NCBI GenBank assembly: GCA_016840425.1
Contig: JAEOSI010000118.1
Location: forward strand, 1 to 7,167
Direction: 5' to 3'
From: Candidatus Wukongarchaeum yapensis
GTDB lineage: Archaea > Asgardarchaeota > Wukongarchaeia > Wukongarchaeales > Wukongarchaeaceae
DNA: 7,167 bases
Part shown: positions 1 to 7,167 of the stretch, one piece after another
Layout: each line of letters starts with the position of its first letter
How positions within the stretch are numbered: the stretch's first letter is position 1
The notes under the pieces: generated by a model
Database searches by the model: none
Seen by the model: only the letters and a program-made list of their open reading frames with translations
Told to the model about the DNA's origin: nothing
Made by a program: the position numbers and the translations under genes

Positions 1-1
1 G

Positions 2-28
2 GAAAAGATCAAGGATTGTGATGGTTGA
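2..28 (+). CDS. possible 3' end of an upstream gene (partial, ...EKIKDCDG*)
   Basis: Frame open from the window edge to TGA 26-28, which overlaps ATG 28-30 (TGATG coupling arrangement). Only 8 codons are visible. Confidence 0.25.
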   Translation, partial: EKIKDCDG

Positions 29-687
29 TGTATCGTGCTTCAACATTTTCTTCTACGGAGGAACGCAGACTTTTAGAAATGGCTCAAGATCATATGAGGT
101 TTGTTCTTCAAGCCGTTCGAGAACTAAGAAACTCGGTAGATCTATGGATCAATAACGATGATGAAAAGTTATTGGAAACAGCCAATAAAGTGATCGAGCT
201 TGAAGAAGAAGCAAATAAGGTAAAGAAGGAGTTTTTAGACGAGCTTTCAAAGGCTTCCCCATCTCTTATGAGCAAAGAAGACCTACTGCGCATGATCTCT
301 TCAATAGATAAAATCGCGGATAAAGCCGTGGGTGCAAGTTTCTTCTTAACAACTCTTTCAGGATGGATTCCGCCAAAAGATTTTGAGAAAAAACTCAAAG
401 CCTTTTGTGATGAAAGCTTTCAATGCGCAGAAAACCTAAGAAAAGCTATTTTCACGTTAGTTAACTCCCCTCGAAAAACGATAGAAATCACAGATAAGAT
501 CGATAAAGGGGAAAATAAGACCGATAATCTCTTCAGAGAGATAACAGTATACACTTATGAATTTAATAAAGATCCTTTTCTCGCTATGAAACTTAAAGAC
601 CTCTTTTTACGCATAGAAGAAATAGCTGACATGTCTGCAGAAGCTGCAGGCACACTAAGACTCATATCACTCTCCCGCATAGCATAA
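28..687 (+). CDS. DUF47 / PhoU-like phosphate transport regulator family protein
   Basis: About 219-aa all-helical protein with two PhoU-like halves: 'LEEEANKVKKEFLDEL...KEDLLRMISSIDKIAD' and 'ENKTDNLFRE...IEEIADMSAEAA'. Start is ATG 28, or TTG 25 as in the ORF track. Confidence 0.85.
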   Translation: MYRASTFSSTEERRLLEMAQDHMRFVLQAVRELRNSVDLWINNDDEKLLETANKVIELEEEANKVKKEFLDELSKASPSLMSKEDLLRMISSIDKIADKAVGASFFLTTLSGWIPPKDFEKKLKAFCDESFQCAENLRKAIFTLVNSPRKTIEITDKIDKGENKTDNLFREITVYTYEFNKDPFLAMKLKDLFLRIEEIADMSAEAAGTLRLISLSRIA

Positions 688-734
688 ATTACTGTTTTCT
701 CAAAAAAACTGTACGCCTTTTTAAGGGATTAAAA

Positions 735-1346
735 ATGGACAAAGTCAAGGAAGAAAGAGGAGAAGAGAAAGAAGAAAAAAAGGAGAAGAAGGAAGGAGAA
801 AAAATAAAGGTTGAACTGCTACAAGACAGGGCTATTGTTTGGGATACCAACTCTGCACGCAAACTTTATGCAGAAGGTTATTTCGGAAAACCCCTAGGCA
901 TACGAAAACCAAAAGGCACAGAATTCGACCGCCCCCTAGAGCTAAGCCTTTTCGAGACCCTTTACCTAGCAGAAAAAGGGAAAATAGAGGTTTTAGACAG
1001 TGTTTCAGGCCTACCCATCAAAATAGAAGAATTGAAAAAGCAAAGCAAAAAAAGCCACGATCTATTCCTAGACAAATACACAGTCTACAAAGACCTAAGA
1101 GAAAAAGGCTACGTAGTCAGACCAGGTTTAAAGTTCGGAACACACTTTGCAGTATACGAAAAAGGACCAGGGATCGACCACGCTCCCTTTCTAACCGAAG
1201 TAACACCCAAAGGAACCTCCCTCTTTCCTATCTCATTAGTGAGGGCAGGAAGACTAGCAACAACAGTCCGAAAACGTTACGTAACCGCGATAATCTCCCC
1301 CACAGGAGAAGTAAAATACCTCGTCTTCTCGTGGTACAAACCGTGA
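735..1346 (+). CDS. endA: tRNA-intron (splicing) endonuclease, catalytic alpha subunit
   Basis: Motifs 'LELSLFETLYL' and 'YTVYKDLREKGYVVRPGLKFGTHFAVY'. Catalytic triad intact: Tyr141 (AVY), His149 (DHA), Lys180 (VRK). Charged E/K-rich N-terminal extension. Confidence 0.95.
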   Translation: MDKVKEERGEEKEEKKEKKEGEKIKVELLQDRAIVWDTNSARKLYAEGYFGKPLGIRKPKGTEFDRPLELSLFETLYLAEKGKIEVLDSVSGLPIKIEELKKQSKKSHDLFLDKYTVYKDLREKGYVVRPGLKFGTHFAVYEKGPGIDHAPFLTEVTPKGTSLFPISLVRAGRLATTVRKRYVTAIISPTGEVKYLVFSWYKP

Positions 1347-1506
1347 ACCATGAGAAGAAATTAGTGATTAGTAAAAAATAAAAAGGTAAAAATTCGTAAA
1401 AATAATGTTAAACATAAATCGCTAACTTTAAAAGTCTAGGATCAATTTATAACCTAATAGAAAGAAAAAAGATCGTATCCATATTACTAATTGCTTTTTG
1501 TTTTTC

Positions 1507-1565
1507 ATATTCGTAAAATTGGAGAATAGAGAAACTTGTCTATTCACAAAAAAATTTGCGAATAT
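1507..1565. repeat. nested inverted repeat / long hairpin
   Basis: ATATTCGTAAA 1507-1517 pairs with TTTGCGAATAT 1555-1565 (11 bp, one G-U on the + strand). GAATAGA 1524-1530 pairs with TCTATTC 1539-1545. Confidence 0.55.
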
Positions 1566-1600
1566 TTAAAAAGATCGTGTCTTTCGGCAACGCGGGAGGT
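1556..1600 (+). promoter_or_regulatory. putative BRE/TATA and RBS for the Cys-rich gene
   Basis: TTTAAA at 1565-1570 preceded by GCGAATA. GGAGG at 1595-1599 lies 9 nt before ATG 1609. Confidence 0.5.
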
Positions 1601-1608
1601 TATAGTCC

Positions 1609-1980
1609 ATGGCCCGTACTGATACTTTAAAAGACTCTAGACCAACGACTTTTAAAAAACGTTTCTGTCATGTTTTTTGCCAAAATTTTAGGTGCACCCA
1701 GAACGCGTTATACATCACCAAGAACAAAAAAACCAATAATAAAGTAGCAAGATGCAATTTTGCAGACGATTTATGCATAGGATACAAATGCAAATACGCA
1801 GTTTGTAACATACACAAATTAAGAGCAGACGGCGTATGCGGAAAATCGATACAAAAACAAAGACCAAGCATCTCAGACGTATGGACCGAGGATCAAGAGG
1901 ATGAAAACGAGACCTTAATGCGAACTTACATGCGAAAAAGCAAAGCCCTAAAAAAACTCAGAAATATAGACCTAGATTAA
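1609..1980 (+). CDS. uncharacterised Cys-rich (putative metal-binding) archaeal protein
   Basis: 123 aa with a strong RBS. Eight Cys within 58 aa (C20, C24, C29, C49, C56, C61, C66, C77), including 'DLCIGYKCKYAVC...DGVCG'. Charged C-terminus. Confidence 0.8.
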   Translation: MARTDTLKDSRPTTFKKRFCHVFCQNFRCTQNALYITKNKKTNNKVARCNFADDLCIGYKCKYAVCNIHKLRADGVCGKSIQKQRPSISDVWTEDQEDENETLMRTYMRKSKALKKLRNIDLD

Positions 1981-2065
1981 AAAACAAGTCTAATTAAAAA
2001 TTAAACCAAAAACCTACCTTATCTTTTTTTTTAAAAGACCATTAGAGAACAGTATTTTTACAGTC

Positions 2066-2093
2066 TTTTTTATGGTTAAAAGACCATAAAAAA
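2066..2093. repeat. perfect 11-bp inverted repeat (terminator-like hairpin or operator)
   Basis: TTTTTTATGGT-TAAAAG-ACCATAAAAAA, located between the Cys-rich gene and the KaiC-like gene. Confidence 0.55.
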
Positions 2094-2212
2094 ATAAAAA
2101 TTAAAAGTTCCAAAATATATATAGTAGAAGTTTAAAAATCTAAAAGCAGATGTTATCTTTTTAATTCTACAAAACTTAAAGTTTTCAATTTTTTATAAAA
2201 ATCCTATGGAAG

Positions 2213-2959
2213 GTGAAAATTTTGAAGTCTACTTTTGAAAGCGCAAAGCTAGGTATTCCCCTCCTAGATGAGTCTTTAGGCGGAGGAATTCCAAGAGGAT
2301 CCCTCGTATTAATAGAAGACGAGTTGGGTTATAATGCCAATATACTCCTTACAAAATTCCTAGTGGAGGGTCTGCAACAAGGTGAATACGGGTTTATTTT
2401 AAGCGTAGATCATCCCCAAGAATATCATTTTGCCCAGATAAGCAAGCTTGCAATGAATCCAGAAACCCTAATAGAAACAGGCAGACTCATCTACATAGAC
2501 GCCTTCTCCTCACCCCGTGGCGGATACCACGACCCAAAAAGAGTCTCAAAAGAGAGAATATCAGACCTCAGCAATCTTTTCGAGGTAAACGAAACAATCC
2601 GCCGCACCCTACTGCACGTTAGCGAATCACTCGCTGTACGCGGAATCATAGACAGTTTTTCAACAATGCTAAATCTTTCAGATTCCCTAAAATCCTCTAT
2701 CTTCTTCTTACAAAACCGTTCAGCTTTAGACAAATCAAGATTAAGCACAACCTTTATGCTAGTACACGCAGATGCCCACGACCCCTACACGCTAAAAGCC
2801 TTAGAACACTTAGCAGACGGCGTAATAACCATAAAAGGAAAAAGTGCAAGCTCATCCCAAGCCATACTAAGAATAGCAAAAATGCGCGATATAGACTATT
2901 CAAGAGAACTCTTCAACTTCGAATGGTACAAAGGAAAACTAACAATGACAAAATTATAA
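2213..2959 (+). CDS. KaiC/RAD55 (RecA-superfamily) ATPase-like protein with degenerate Walker A
   Basis: 'LGIPLLDESLGGGIPRGSLVLI', Walker-B-like 'RGIIDSFS', 'LEHLADGVI' and 'LRIAKMR' are all typical of the family. The P-loop reads EDELGYNAN, with no GKT/S. The true start may be TTG 2222, since GGAAGGTGA overlaps the GTG. Confidence 0.85.
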   Translation: MKILKSTFESAKLGIPLLDESLGGGIPRGSLVLIEDELGYNANILLTKFLVEGLQQGEYGFILSVDHPQEYHFAQISKLAMNPETLIETGRLIYIDAFSSPRGGYHDPKRVSKERISDLSNLFEVNETIRRTLLHVSESLAVRGIIDSFSTMLNLSDSLKSSIFFLQNRSALDKSRLSTTFMLVHADAHDPYTLKALEHLADGVITIKGKSASSSQAILRIAKMRDIDYSRELFNFEWYKGKLTMTKL

Positions 2960-2991
2960 TCCCCAACCCCAACTCAGAAAATAAAGAGCTA

Positions 2992-3012
2992 CTTCCTCCC
3001 CTTTTTATCTTT
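2992..3012 (+). terminator. pyrimidine/T-rich archaeal terminator candidate
   Basis: CTTCCTCCCCTTTTTATCTTT about 30 nt after the KaiC-like stop codon. Confidence 0.35.
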
Positions 3013-3123
3013 ATGTCGCCAAGAAGATTCTACTCTCAAGATAAGGGATAGCTTCTGATCAATGTCTATTAAGTGCGTTTTTATACGGATACGGAAACAC
3101 TTCCTGTAAAAGCGGGATAATTC

Positions 3124-3212
3124 ACACTTCTCAGTCCTGCGCGGGCAAATCATAAGCGCCTAAAACAGAAAAAATAAACGCTTCAAAACCAAGCCCTCAT
3201 CATTGAAAGTAT
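3124..3212 (-). ncRNA. box C/D 2'-O-methylation guide sRNA
   Basis: Minus strand reads AUACUUUC-A-AUGAUGA (C, 3203-3197), GGGCUUGGUU (guide), UUGA (D', 3186-3183), AGCGUUUA-12 nt loop-UAGGCGCU (8-bp stem), U-AUGAUUU (C', 3153-3147), GCCCGCGCAGGA (guide), CUGA (D, 3134-3131), GAAGUGU. The terminal stem and 3-nt bulges give K-turn geometry at both motifs. Confidence 0.85.
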
Positions 3213-3236
3213 AAAAACATCCCGCTTAAATTCTAA

Positions 3237-3249
3237 TTTAAATCCTTTT
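3237..3249 (-). promoter_or_regulatory. BRE-TATA promoter candidate for the sRNA
   Basis: Minus strand AAAAGGA-TTTAAA, with the first T about 30 nt upstream of 3212. A second TATA-like TATAAA lies at 3260-3255. Confidence 0.5.
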
Positions 3250-3333
3250 AACCTTTTATACATAAAATTTTCTTTCTTTAAAACTCTAAAACTTTTTAAT
3301 CCAATATCTGAATACCATTATCTACCCAAAGAA

Positions 3334-3351
3334 ATTATTATTATTATTATT
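3334..3351. repeat. (ATT)6 microsatellite
   Basis: Six consecutive ATT units directly visible, upstream of the CxxC microprotein gene. Confidence 0.8.
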
Positions 3352-3387
3352 TTGAATTAGTTTAGCGGTTTTGCGAGGTTATCTTTC

Positions 3388-3540
3388 ATGTTTATTAACC
3401 CGAGACTAAGGTTTTTTTTCATACTGTTCCTTGCCCTATTGTTCCTTTCTATAGGCATAGTAGTAAACCAATATGACGACATTAAAGAGTATGCTGCATC
3501 ATTTTGTGATTCTTGCACAGCAGGTCTACCAAAACCCTAA
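3388..3540 (+). CDS. 50-aa membrane-anchored CxxC microprotein (CD1871A-like), missing from the ORF track
   Basis: MFINPRLRFFFILFLALLFLSIGIVVNQYDDIKEYAASFCDSCTAGLPKP*. One TM helix and a C-terminal CDSC. GAGGT RBS at 3375-3379. Lies 40 nt upstream of a 4Fe-4S membrane protein gene, the gene order I recall for this family. Confidence 0.85.
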   Translation: MFINPRLRFFFILFLALLFLSIGIVVNQYDDIKEYAASFCDSCTAGLPKP

Positions 3541-3580
3541 TCCTCAAAACCCTTAACGAAAGAGAAAGAGGTAAAAACGT

Positions 3581-4525
3581 ATGACACTAAAAGACAAAAT
3601 CTCACCAGAAGAAGTAGCCGCTAGAAGACGAAGAATAAAAACTCTAAGACTCTTTATCCAAATCCTCATTCTCCTCATCATAAACGCTCAAATATTCGGG
3701 GCTGCAGACACAGGGTTTCCCGCCCCCGTACTCTATCCAGCAGGGGCTCCCTACACCGTGATGGTTGGCGCCTACTACGCTTTTGAAAAAACCATGACTT
3801 CGGGCGCTTTACCCTTCCTTGCCCTGGGCGTCATTTTTTTAATCACCGTCGTTTCAGGTCGCGCTTTCTGCGGCTGGGCTTGTCCCTTCGGCCTAGCACA
3901 GGATGTGGTTGGTTACGCTCCAACAAAGAAAAAAAGACCCGACCGCATCATTAACAAAGACTTGCAATTTTTCGCTCAATTATTCCTATTCATAAGCATA
4001 ATCATCGGTCTATACGTTGGCTGGAAAACATACAAAGGAACAGACGCCGACGTAAGGGAAGGTTTAGGCGTGTTCTCAGACGCACCTTTTGCAGTATACT
4101 CCCCCGCAGCAACCCTTTTCGCCACAATACCCTACATGATCGGCTGGTACCCTGATTATGACGACCCCATAGCCTTCACCGATTTCGGCATACTCTTCTG
4201 GCTAAGATTATTATTCCTTATAGCAATCCTATACACAGTAGCATACGTCCCCCGCGCCTTCTGCCGATGGTTCTGCCCTCTGGGCCTAATCATGGGAGAA
4301 TGCGGAAAATACAGCCTAATAGGCCTATCAAGAAACCCCGCAAGATGTGATAAGTGCGGAGACTGCGAAAAGGTATGCCCCATGGGGGTTAGAATCCTCG
4401 ACTACCCTTATGAAAGGATCTCAGACCCCTACTGTATCCTCTGTATGGACTGTGTAGCAGCATGCCCAAAAGACGCCCTAGAAATAACCTTCAACATCCC
4501 AAAAAAGAGCTCTGAAAAGAAATAA
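3581..4525 (+). CDS. 4Fe-4S binding membrane protein, NapH/MauN/YccM family
   Basis: Several TM helices, 'GRAFCGWACPFG' and 'FCRWFCPLG', plus two ferredoxin motifs CDKCGDCEKVCP and CILCMDCVAACP. GAGGT RBS upstream. Confidence 0.92.
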   Translation: MTLKDKISPEEVAARRRRIKTLRLFIQILILLIINAQIFGAADTGFPAPVLYPAGAPYTVMVGAYYAFEKTMTSGALPFLALGVIFLITVVSGRAFCGWACPFGLAQDVVGYAPTKKKRPDRIINKDLQFFAQLFLFISIIIGLYVGWKTYKGTDADVREGLGVFSDAPFAVYSPAATLFATIPYMIGWYPDYDDPIAFTDFGILFWLRLLFLIAILYTVAYVPRAFCRWFCPLGLIMGECGKYSLIGLSRNPARCDKCGDCEKVCPMGVRILDYPYERISDPYCILCMDCVAACPKDALEITFNIPKKSSEKK

Positions 4526-4556
4526 AAAATGCATCAAAAAATAACTTCTATACAAC

Positions 4557-4811
4557 CTATTTTTCTTCTTCTTTTTCTTCGTCCTCTTCTTTTATCGCCC
4601 TATTTTCGCCCCACCTATGTTCGTTTATCTTCAACCAGTTTTCCTCAATTTTAGGAGGTCTTATAAGAAACAAAGGATCTAGGGAAGTTATATCCTCAAT
4701 AATATTCTCCTTTTTTTCTTTTTTACGCTTTCTAACTTCAACAAAAGCTATAAGTAACCCATCGTCTTCCCCTATCTGTCTTATAACAATCTCTTGGACC
4801 GGGAAACTCAA
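4557..4811 (-). CDS. small hypothetical protein (84 aa, TTG start)
   Basis: GGAGTG RBS-like motif 8 nt upstream of the TTG, a TATA box upstream, an acidic C-terminal tail, and no overlap with + strand genes. No family recognised. Confidence 0.5.
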   Translation of the reverse strand: MSFPVQEIVIRQIGEDDGLLIAFVEVRKRKKEKKENIIEDITSLDPLFLIRPPKIEENWLKINEHRWGENRAIKEEDEEKEEEK

Positions 4812-4893
4812 GGCACATACACTCCAACGCGAGAACCAAAATTCTTACGTTGATCACGAACAGCACAAGTATGTTTAATAAAGCGCTTTTGAG

Positions 4894-4902
4894 TATTTAT
4901 AA
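4894..4902 (-). promoter_or_regulatory. TATA box candidate for the minus-strand small ORF
   Basis: TTATAAATA on the minus strand, predicting a TSS near 4872-4874. Confidence 0.4.
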
Positions 4903-5250
4903 TCTTATATTTAATCAATAATCTAGATAAAAGAATAACCGCATAACAATTATAAAGATTATGCAAAATTTATCTCACCATTTCAAATTTAAAATCCTGT
5001 TAATTTAATATAAAAAAACGACATAATATCCATAGATAGAGAATTTTTAACTTTTCATAATATCACATGCCATACGATTCAAAAACTATTGATGTCCTAA
5101 ACCATCAAATTAAGTTAAAGAACATTTTGCACTAATTTAAAAAGTTTGTTTGGTGTGAGAAATTTTTAGTTTAAAATACAATGGTGGCATGGAAAGTGGA
5201 TAGTGCCGCGAAATCCGTTAAGTATATAGTTTAGATAATATTAATCATTG

Positions 5251-5256
5251 TTTAAA
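5251..5256 (+). promoter_or_regulatory. TATA candidate implying a leaderless S9 peptidase mRNA
   Basis: TTTAAA starts 30 nt before ATG 5281 and no RBS precedes the ATG. An alternative TATA-like sequence lies at 5218-5229. Confidence 0.35.
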
Positions 5257-5280
5257 AAATTGGTTTGAGAGCTGATTCTA

Positions 5281-7104
5281 ATGGCAAAAGAGATAACATT
5301 AGAGAAGTTAGCAAAAATTCCAACAATCATGCAACTTAGAACTAATAAAGAAAAAGATAAAATAGGTTTTTATTGGAACAAAACCGAAAGGAATGAATTC
5401 TATATACTCGATCCTAAAATAAAAGAATACAAAAAAATAACCGATGGTGAGCTCCCACGAGCTATTCGAGCAGGATATTTATGGTTAAATGATAGTAAAC
5501 AAATAATATATACCAGAGATAAAGATGGTGACGAACAACATGATCTCTTTTTGTTTAATATTGAGACAAAAGAATCTATACAACTATCAGAAACACCAGA
5601 TGCACTAGATATTCCTTTTGCAATAAGTCCAGATGGAAATTTTCTCTGTTTTGGATCTTCAAGAGCAGGACAAATAAACTTGTTTAAAATGAATATTGAA
5701 TCCAAAGAGGTCGTTCAACTAACGGATCATAAATCTCCTACTTGGTTTGGTGCAGTCTGGAGTAAGAACAAATGGATCTATTATTCTTGCAATGCGACAG
5801 AGAATTTAAAAAATGTAGATATTTGGGCTGTTAAAGAAGATGGTAGTGAGAAAAATCTAGTTTTTCAAGTGACAGACGATTCTGAAGATTTAGTGTTTGA
5901 TGCGTCTGATGATGGAATGATTTTAGCTATTGAAAGTAATGCTAAAGGTGTAAGACAAGCAGGAATCTTGATGACTGAAACAAATGAGGTTAAATGGTTT
6001 GGAGATGCCAAATATGACGAAACTGTTATCGAATTAAGCAAAGATGCAAAGAATCTTTTAGTACTAAGAAACAGACAAGCAGAAATAATACCAGTTCTAT
6101 ATAAATTAGAAACGGGTGAAGGGAAAGCACTAGACTTTAAAGGCGTTATATCTGCCTTTCAAGGAAAATTCAACATATCATTCTGTTTAGATGACAAATA
6201 CCTTGTATATACACGTTCAGATCCGAAAACTCCGCAAATATTGGCCTTATATGATATAGAAAAGGAAAAAGAAGAGATCATCATTCAACCCCAAACTGAT
6301 TTAACTGAAGAAACTTTTTACGATTCCGAATATGTCAAATATCCTTCTTTTGATAATCTAGAAATTTCTGCAATATTATATAAACCAAAAATTGAGAAAG
6401 AAAAGAAATATCCTGCACTTATAATTGTTCATGGAGGCCCTGAATCTCAGTTCTTCAGAAACTTTAATATGATCGGACATGTATTTGCCCACAATGGATT
6501 TGTACTCTTACAGCCAAACGTTAGAGGATCAACAGGATATGGAAAAGAGTTTCTGGAAATGAACTACCTAGATTGGGGTGGAGGCGATGCAAAAGATGTA
6601 ATTCATGGAAAGAAGTTCCTAGAAACTCTAGATTACGTGGATCCTGAAAGAATAGGGGTCTTTGGAGGATCTTACGGAGGTTTCATGACTTTTCTCCAAA
6701 TGACAAAATACGCTGATGCGGGTTGGAAAGCTGGTTCTGCCTGGATTGGAGTCTCTAATTTGAAAACATTCTTTGATAACTCAAAGCCATATTTCAAGTA
6801 CTTTATCATATCTCACCTAGGAACATATGAAGAACAAAAAGAACTTTGGGAAGATAGATCAGCAATAAATCACATTAAAAAGATAAAAGCACCAATCCAA
6901 ATGATCCACGGCGTTAATGACCCAAGATGTCCTATTATAGAGTCACGTCAATTTAGAGATAAACTAGTGGAGATGGGTAAGAAAGAAGGTGAGGACTTCG
7001 AATATGTGGAATTCGCTGATGAAGGGCATGGTGCGTATTCTGATATGAATATGAGAATAAGAACTTTCAAATTATTCCTAGATTTCTTCAAAAGAAGATT
7101 ATAA
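5281..7104 (+). CDS. S9 family serine peptidase (acylaminoacyl-peptidase / DPP-like) with N-terminal beta-propeller
   Basis: 'VHGGPESQ', 'PNVRGSTGYG', nucleophile motif GGSYGG, Asp in 'GVNDPRC' and His in 'DEGHG'. TolB/PD40-like propeller repeats ('AISPDG', 'QLTD'). No signal peptide evident. Confidence 0.95.
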   Translation: MAKEITLEKLAKIPTIMQLRTNKEKDKIGFYWNKTERNEFYILDPKIKEYKKITDGELPRAIRAGYLWLNDSKQIIYTRDKDGDEQHDLFLFNIETKESIQLSETPDALDIPFAISPDGNFLCFGSSRAGQINLFKMNIESKEVVQLTDHKSPTWFGAVWSKNKWIYYSCNATENLKNVDIWAVKEDGSEKNLVFQVTDDSEDLVFDASDDGMILAIESNAKGVRQAGILMTETNEVKWFGDAKYDETVIELSKDAKNLLVLRNRQAEIIPVLYKLETGEGKALDFKGVISAFQGKFNISFCLDDKYLVYTRSDPKTPQILALYDIEKEKEEIIIQPQTDLTEETFYDSEYVKYPSFDNLEISAILYKPKIEKEKKYPALIIVHGGPESQFFRNFNMIGHVFAHNGFVLLQPNVRGSTGYGKEFLEMNYLDWGGGDAKDVIHGKKFLETLDYVDPERIGVFGGSYGGFMTFLQMTKYADAGWKAGSAWIGVSNLKTFFDNSKPYFKYFIISHLGTYEEQKELWEDRSAINHIKKIKAPIQMIHGVNDPRCPIIESRQFRDKLVEMGKKEGEDFEYVEFADEGHGAYSDMNMRIRTFKLFLDFFKRRL

Positions 7105-7122
7105 AAACTTCAAGAGAAGATT

Positions 7123-7167
7123 ATGAAAGTTTTGGAAATTTGGAAATGTCGTGAAAGGAATATTTCA
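7123..7167 (+). CDS. possible start of the next gene (partial, MKVLEIWKCRERNIS...)
   Basis: ATG 18 nt after the peptidase stop, with the frame open to the window end. Only 15 codons are visible. Confidence 0.2.
   Translation, partial: MKVLEIWKCRERNIS

Follow-up and report, generated by a model that had tools for sequence, protein, structure and literature searches.

The locus and its predicted sRNA

The stretch of DNA analysed here, referred to throughout as the window, comprises 7,167 nucleotides (nt) from the Asgard archaeon Candidatus Wukongarchaeum yapensis (contig JAEOSI010000118.1, positions 1 to 7,167). On its minus strand, at about 3227-3108, the layout of a box C/D small RNA (sRNA) can be read from the sequence, in an intergenic gap flanked by a gene for a KaiC-like ATPase on one side and a gene for a 4Fe-4S membrane protein on the other. 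The host genome (G000; 2.16 Mb, 38% G+C) carries introns in most of its tRNA genes. Its class is represented by three genomes in the collection; G001 is a genus-mate ('Candidatus Hodarchaeota archaeon DZ1B.339') and G002 is the only other member of the order. The window stretch occurs in DNA sequencing runs of marine sediment, mangrove and marsh metagenomes; searches of the sequencing runs listed no RNA run that contains it. Read 5' to 3' along the minus strand, the features of the element are:

3235-3250, minus strand: TATA-like, A/T-rich element UUAAAAGGAUUUAAAU, a putative archaeal promoter; G001 keeps UAUAAAAGAUUUAGAU
3219-3227, minus strand: 5' arm AAGCGGGAU of an inverted repeat that extends the terminal stem, pairing with 3118-3110 in the predicted fold
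3197-3203, minus strand: C box AUGAUGA, from sequence, identical in G001
3187-3196, minus strand: D' guide GGGCUUGGUU, 10 nt, from sequence, with no convincing target
3183-3186, minus strand: D' box UUGA, a degenerate CUGA (the C box and the hairpin have no other GA step between them), identical in G001
3154-3182, minus strand: D'-C' spacer, 29 nt, with a hairpin of 8-9 bp predicted (arms near 3182-3176 and 3161-3155)
3147-3153, minus strand: C' box AUGAUUU, degenerate, from sequence; its UGAUUU matches Desulfurococcaceae loci
3135-3146, minus strand: D guide GCCCGCGCAGGA, 12 nt, complement of the tRNA-Leu variable-arm/T-stem junction, N+5 = G47
3131-3134, minus strand: D box CUGA, from sequence, identical in G001
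3108-3118, minus strand: 3' arm AUCCCGCUU of the terminal inverted repeat, from the fold, leading to a UUUU tract; conservation with G001 ends just after it

Target bases were defined by the N+5 rule (the fifth guide nucleotide counted from the D or D' box). An earlier reading of the window from its letters alone, the original prediction, had given both guide strings and their complements correctly; 3135-3196 is exactly the guide-to-guide span on the minus strand, and the target bases are those it named, A (or G by wobble) for the D' guide and G for the D guide.

The terminal helix contains a 9-bp repeat formed by the two arms listed above (3227-3219 and 3118-3110) and leads into the U-tract, which is likely the terminator of the sRNA. 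The TATA-like element may serve as its promoter; in G001 it lies ~25 nt upstream of the start of the conserved block. When positions 3100-3240 (141 nt) were folded, the predicted energy was -42.5 kcal/mol as opposed to -30.1 kcal/mol in shuffled sequences (z = -3.56). Pairing at the terminal C and D boxes would generate a kink-turn, and in the same model the spacer hairpin would provide the canonical stem of the C'/D' kink-turn, in which the D' and C' boxes retain the G-A step and are otherwise degenerate. The D and D' guides measure 12 and 10 nt, archaeal C/D ribonucleoproteins (RNPs) using about 12.

Between G000 and G001 the sRNA block shows 92% identity, and conservation does not extend past the flanking stem and U-tract. 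In the terminal stem one C-G pair of the window is U-A in G001, both sides having changed; in the spacer hairpin, U·G is replaced by C-G and by U-A and one pair is lost, with the hairpin kept. An indel of ~82 nt follows the U-tract (window 3108-3020), the stretch being present in G000 and missing from G001. A 54-aa open reading frame on the minus strand (3153-2989), which starts inside the C' box, was considered and rejected as a gene, as this indel deletes most of it in G001. A BLAST search against 40 relatives returned G001 as the source of the sole orthologue. Genes for Nop5 (PF01798, 2.4e-67) and fibrillarin (PF01269, 2.3e-96) are adjacent in an operon on contig C172. A second locus, UUUUCAAUGAUGGGGGUUUGGUUUU (G000:C118:20133-20169 and G001:C36:11697-11734, both on the minus strand), shares 81% identity with the sRNA's 5' portion (leader, C box, D' guide). 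Both genomes retain it; a downstream D box is not obvious there.

The D guide and tRNA-Leu

Five tRNA-Leu genes were located in G000 (contig:positions C70:3988-4090, C268:11131-11243, C89:3462-3612, C189:13116-13256 and C123:15076-15207). They were identified manually through T-arm and acceptor pairing, and two were confirmed after removal of the D-arm intron. ARAGORN at default settings reported 4 tRNAs genome-wide and none in the window, its intron mode mislabelled the tRNA-Leu genes, and the Rfam tRNA model detected 0/5 of them. Four of the five carry a D-arm intron of 18-40 nt near positions 21-23, and three have an extra intron in the variable arm. Given the spliced CAG and UAG sequences, ARAGORN placed the variable stem and then U46-G47-C48. 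In G002, tRNA-Leu(CAG) (L152, G002:C19, about locus 1450-1590) has an apparent T-loop intron (GGGUUCAAA...intron...AUUCCC) in addition to a D-loop intron.

The D guide complements the variable-arm/T-stem junction in three of the five genes, those with anticodons CAG, UAG and GAG. The junctions compare as follows:

tRNA-Leu(CAG), C70:3988-4090: junction GCCUGCGCGGGU; guide positions 2-11 paired Watson-Crick and position 12 as G·U; -24.9 kcal/mol (perfect duplex -26.9)
tRNA-Leu(UAG): junction GCCUGCGUGGGU; 9 Watson-Crick pairs and 2 G·U; -23.0 kcal/mol
tRNA-Leu(GAG): junction ACCUGCGUGGGU; 9 Watson-Crick pairs and 2 G·U; -22.8 kcal/mol
tRNA-Leu(UAA): junction GCCUCCGCGGGU; target base mismatched to the guide
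tRNA-Leu(CAA): junction GCGUUCGUGGGU; two mismatches, one of them at the target base

In this register the N+5 partner is G47, immediately 5' of C48, and in tRNA-Leu(CAG) it forms a G-C pair. The proposal that the D guide is aimed at the G before C48 of tRNA-Leu is supported by 10 Watson-Crick pairs and 1 G·U in CAG and by retention in the 38 archaeal loci described below. The original prediction had also named two tRNA motifs. The first, AGGCCUGCG(C/U)GGGUUC, occurs verbatim in tRNA-Leu CAG and UAG; the second, GCCAAGCCUGG, is absent, the CUN tRNA-Leu species reading GACCGAGUCCGG or GUCCGAGCCAGG in its place, with AGCCAAGUCAGG present only in tRNA-Leu(CAA).

Conservation of this guide was followed by scanning ~186,000 species genomes with the pattern TGAT-N2-4-CCCRCGCAGG-N-CTGAG, whose size alone would, by our estimate, yield some tens of chance matches, almost all in bacteria. 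Of the 52 loci returned, 14 are bacterial and 38 archaeal. Desulfurococcales, Acidilobaceae, Sulfolobales, Zestosphaera, Caldisphaera, Thermogladius, Micrarchaeota and two Asgard lineages supply the archaeal set, and in all 38 the spacing from C' box to D box is exactly 12 nt; the bacterial matches are scattered over the allowed spacings. The window (UGAUUU-GCCCGCGCAGGA-CUGA) fits the family core, which consists of CCCRCGCAGG, one base and CUGA. Its 23-mer UGAUUUGCCCGCGCAGGACUGAG is identical in four Desulfurococcaceae loci, and at the Desulfurococcaceae loci L066, L098, L102 and L105 this guide likewise has a UGAUUU C' box immediately before it. Guide position 8 is G in 28 and A in 10 of the archaeal loci and the opposing tRNA base is U or C; a G·U pair is therefore widely tolerated there. 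In four genomes, one each from Desulfurococcaceae, Acidilobaceae, Sulfolobales and Micrarchaeota, tRNA-Leu genes are the only place where CCUGCGYGGG, the complement, recurs; its other sites are sRNA-gene antisense and a few scattered positions, none of them rRNA-like.

Within the phylum, a scan of 400 genomes found the guide pattern in G000, G001 and Candidatus Baldrarchaeum. The sRNA of Ca. Baldrarchaeum yapensis (JAEOSH010000001.1:1421-1475; L075/L050) reads AUGAAGA, a 12-nt guide, CUGA, a 3-nt loop, GUGAUGA, UCCCACGCAGGG and CUGA. Like the window RNA, it has an Asgard host and a D guide, UCCCACGCAGGG, that forms 10 Watson-Crick pairs with tRNA-Leu and places a G at N+5. All four tRNA-Leu genes of that genome carry GGCCUGCGUGGGUUC, so that both the ten pairs and the target G recur there, and tRNA-Leu is the sole recurring complement of the guide. 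Unlike the window RNA, it is compact and canonical: its loop measures 3 nt, its C' box is UGAUGA, and its D' guide, GUGCCUGCGUCG, has 12 nt and is unrelated. It also gave sub-threshold Rfam matches to snoPyro_CD, sR1 and sR5. The guide GUGCCUGCGUCG includes CCUGCGU, in the sense of the tRNA-Leu target, and could pair over 7 bp with the D guide of its own RNA. In G002, U replaces G47 in tRNA-Leu (GCCUUCGAGGGU, GCCUUCGCGGGU); a search of that genome for the D guide found none, and looking for a compensating guide produced a single match, which lacked box features.

The other guide varies across the family. GCUCGAAAGG serves as D' guide in 30 of the 38 archaeal loci; it is complementary to the tRNA-Glu(UUC) anticodon loop and places U34 at N+5. 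These 30 crenarchaeal relatives have a D'-C' loop of 3-5 nt, except L068, L073 and L097. The window has neither this D' guide nor the short loop; the two define a crenarchaeal subgroup and not the whole D-guide family. The D' guides of Ca. Baldrarchaeum and of Iho-sR306, a published sRNA from Ignicoccus hospitalis, differ again from GCUCGAAAGG. Because the D' guides differ among relatives while the D guide core is kept, the pattern read from these sequences is one of a D guide fixed on tRNA-Leu and a D' guide drifting among targets.

Two further observations concern the crenarchaeal and uncultured members. In the subgroup with GCUCGAAAGG (L066, L059, L085 and 27 others), one sRNA would serve two tRNAs, tRNA-Leu and tRNA-Glu(UUC); an assignment of this D' guide to U34 of tRNA-Glu(UUC) was not found in the accessible literature. 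At L086, L108, L062 and L082, on Thermoproteota or uncultured-archaeon contigs, the sRNA starts 10-25 nt past the 3' end of a tRNA gene, an arrangement that fits the tRNA-sRNA dicistrons known from Ignicoccus and Nanoarchaeum.

Taken together, the sequence features, complementarity and conservation observed at this locus lead us to conclude that the element is probably a box C/D methylation-guide sRNA, with its D guide on G47 of tRNA-Leu(CAG), (UAG) and (GAG) and a D' guide that has no convincing target. On the comparative evidence, the predicted targeting of tRNA-Leu G47 by the D guide is well supported. In the mechanism we propose, the unusually long terminal stem would bring the C and D boxes together and the 8-9 bp hairpin would close the degenerate D'/C' boxes. 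Once transcribed and assembled with L7Ae, Nop5 and fibrillarin, the predicted sRNA would use its D guide to pair with the variable arm's 3' strand and the T stem's 5' strand in these three tRNAs, most likely on their intron-bearing precursors, which would set the ribose of G47 in methylation register and lead to its methylation. The sRNA would then be an Asgard member of an old and widespread guide family that includes Iho-sR306 and Sac-sR114, the latter from Sulfolobus acidocaldarius.

Several results weigh against this conclusion. An Rfam scan of the window gave no family at E values up to 1, C/D models included, probably because the long internal hairpin breaks the covariance models. A simple pattern scan of G000 showed no further clear canonical C/D sRNA and no excess of 12-nt spacings. 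Guide matches were evaluated on a stable-RNA set of 8.7 kb with 300 shuffled guides as controls, and 11 of the 300 shuffled D guides reached at least 10 contiguous Watson-Crick pairs, so that the within-genome statistic for the D-guide match alone is moderate (about 0.04). The D guide of G001 has A at position 8, which creates a C·A mismatch with tRNA-Leu(CAG), the only CUN tRNA-Leu fully assembled in that genome; since the GAG gene is cut at a contig end and UAG is unassembled, the G-to-A change in the guide is not matchable to its targets. Access is a further difficulty, because the target spans two helices of the folded tRNA and methylation would need an unfolded precursor. Finally, in Pyrococcus furiosus, for which a C/D guide for G47 of tRNA-Leu(UAA) was predicted earlier (Lowe lab snoRNAdb, as cited in Wolff et al. 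2020, PMC7668247), the methylation was not detected by mass spectrometry (PMC7668247). That earlier prediction also removes the novelty that the original prediction had allowed for this position. The supplementary alignment of the same paper, garbled in its accessible form and of unknown coverage at this site, has no mark on the target G of S. acidocaldarius tRNA-Leu.

The D' guide and alternative readings

For the D' guide, the stable RNAs offer at most 7 contiguous Watson-Crick pairs, a length equalled or beaten by 198 of the 300 shuffles. Among anticodon loops its best partner is tRNA-Gly(UCC), with 7 bp and A37 in register; this candidate was rejected, being no better than shuffles. A scan for split matches over exon junctions and introns gave nothing plausible. 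The guide is carried by only two genomes, G000 and G001, and is identical in both.

One alternative is that both arms act on a single tRNA-Leu, the D' guide holding nt 9-18, the 5' half of the D arm, and either methylating position 13 or simply clamping this strand, the D guide methylating G47, and the two together serving as a folding chaperone for intron-bearing pre-tRNA-Leu. We consider this unlikely. The D' guide pairs without gaps, at all 10 positions, with nt 9-18 of tRNA-Leu CAG and UAG (GACCGAGUCC) and UAA (GGCCGAGCCC), at the cost of three G·U pairs, including one at G13, the target base (N+5). In tRNA-Leu(CAA), where nt 9-18 read AGCCAAGUCA, 9 of the 10 positions are paired, including 2 G·U, and A13 is in register and pairs Watson-Crick. 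Duplex energies on tRNA-Leu range from -12.4 to -16.7 kcal/mol, compared with -16.9 for a perfect duplex, and a pairing as good with the three CUN tRNA-Leu is reached by only 4% of shuffled D' guides. In four of the five genes the D-arm intron falls just 3' of nt 9-18 and would leave that strand unpaired in the precursor, and rare dual guides on one tRNA are described for Pyrobaculum (PMC6009581).

Several points speak against joint action. The pairing criterion (at most three G·U, this window) was fixed after the match had been seen, and for 53% of shuffled guides the stable RNAs contain a site that is just as good. In the three tRNAs that match the D guide, nt 9-18 are GACCGAGUCC or GUCCGAGCCA; a G·U pair falls at N+5, and such a pair makes a poor methylation substrate. 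The only species with A13, tRNA-Leu(CAA), is mismatched to the D guide at its target base. The claim that both guides share one tRNA-Leu and yield Am13 is accordingly not supported: G13 is present in the CUN species matching the D guide, and a search of G000 for a single tRNA with both GCCAAGCCY and CCUGCGYGGG found none. At 10 nt, moreover, the D' guide is short of the ~12 nt used by archaeal small RNPs, reported guide lengths being 10-12 (PMC4644070). Relatives aim their D' guides elsewhere (tRNA-Glu(UUC) U34 in 30/38, another sequence in Baldrarchaeum), and targeting of the same tRNA is therefore not a family trait. The 16S rRNA site suggested as a second choice for the D' guide was also lost, G000 having GGCUUAGCUAUGC there and no GAYUAAGCC. 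We conclude that a role of the D' arm as a second methylation guide is not supported and that it most likely acts only as a second protein-binding module.

The 16S rRNA gene itself (G000:C165:13039-14575) carries an A-rich insertion, CCCAGAAAACCAAAAAAAAACUUCCGGG, directly before the conserved AAACUUAAAGGAAUUG, about 870-900 nt in; its G+C content is 59%, in a sediment-derived genome of 38% G+C.

A variant in which the Asgard sRNA would work as a two-point clamp, the shortened, G·U-rich D' arm resting on D-arm nt 9-18 that the intron keeps single-stranded while the D guide methylates G47, strikes us as quite improbable. If true, it would link both the access of the guide RNA and tRNA-core folding to non-canonical tRNA introns.

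A different possibility is that the D guide truly targets 23S rRNA, at UCCUGCGCG about 1740 nt into the molecule, and that the tRNA-Leu match is incidental. rRNA is the target of most archaeal C/D guides, and this site offers nine contiguous Watson-Crick pairs from position 1 with a G at N+5 (-17.9 kcal/mol). The original prediction had named an rRNA match of 10 bp or more as the rival to look for; the search found this 9-bp site as the best in rRNA, a duplex shorter and weaker than that with tRNA-Leu. G001 keeps the 23S site, yet its guide, with A at position 8, matches over only 7 bp. Complement sites were never rRNA-like in the four crenarchaeal and Micrarchaeota genomes, and Iho-sR306 is without an rRNA target. 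A 23S target is thus very improbable. Equally hard to credit is a locus that is no working guide RNA at all, either a decayed remnant or chance box motifs in an A/T-rich spacer, for which the degenerate D'/C' boxes, the 10-nt D' spacing, the missing Rfam match and the lack of another clear canonical C/D sRNA in the simple scan of G000 might speak, against the identity of UGAUUUGCCCGCGCAGGACUGAG with Desulfurococcaceae sRNAs, a conserved island between diverged flanks in G001 whose two stems stay paired through substitutions, and a fold well below shuffles.

Relation to known guide RNAs

The reading of this element as a tRNA-Leu guide annotates an overlooked guide RNA, missed by Rfam models, in a very poorly sampled Asgard class. 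It also supplies a likely target, G47 of tRNA-Leu, for a widespread archaeal guide family, so that the prediction becomes testable in the tractable Sulfolobus acidocaldarius. The mechanism is not new: tRNA-directed C/D guides are well established (PMC7994747), and a tRNA-Leu G47 prediction was already known. The features peculiar to the window RNA lie in its architecture, with a hairpin-closed C'/D' motif, long terminal stem and short D' guide, and its Asgard lineage is also unusual.

The closest published relatives are Sac-sR114 and Iho-sR306 (IHOsR306), box C/D sRNAs detected by RNA sequencing (Dennis et al. 2015, PMC4644070, Additional file 1). Both belong to the 38 archaeal loci, and their tRNA-Leu G47 register is assigned in the present analysis and not in that paper, which compiled only rRNA targets and lists none ('NP') for either guide of Iho-sR306. 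They share with the window the D guide core CCCGCGCAGG, which follows the C' box directly and is separated from the D box by one base. The differences lie in their length of about 58-63 nt, with a D'-C' loop of 3-5 nt and 12-nt D' guides, compared with the 29-nt spacer and long terminal stem of the window RNA. The Sulfolobus-type D' guide GCUCGAAAGG is directed at tRNA-Glu(UUC), and the 10-nt D' guide of the window is unrelated to it.

The Pyrococcus prediction resembles the window in guiding ribose methylation to a position labelled G47 in a class II tRNA-Leu. It concerns another phylum and another isoacceptor, numbering in long variable arms is ambiguous, and the likeness is one of target position. 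A likeness of pattern extends to Pyrobaculum (Lui et al. 2018, PMC6009581), where tRNA-targeting C/D sRNA families cover 23 positions. There, ~80% of the tRNA-targeting C/D sRNAs use one guide on a conserved structural tRNA region, the second guide being without a target, and one guide can serve several isoacceptors of shared sequence. The fixed D guide and drifting D' guide of the window's family fit this one-guide pattern.

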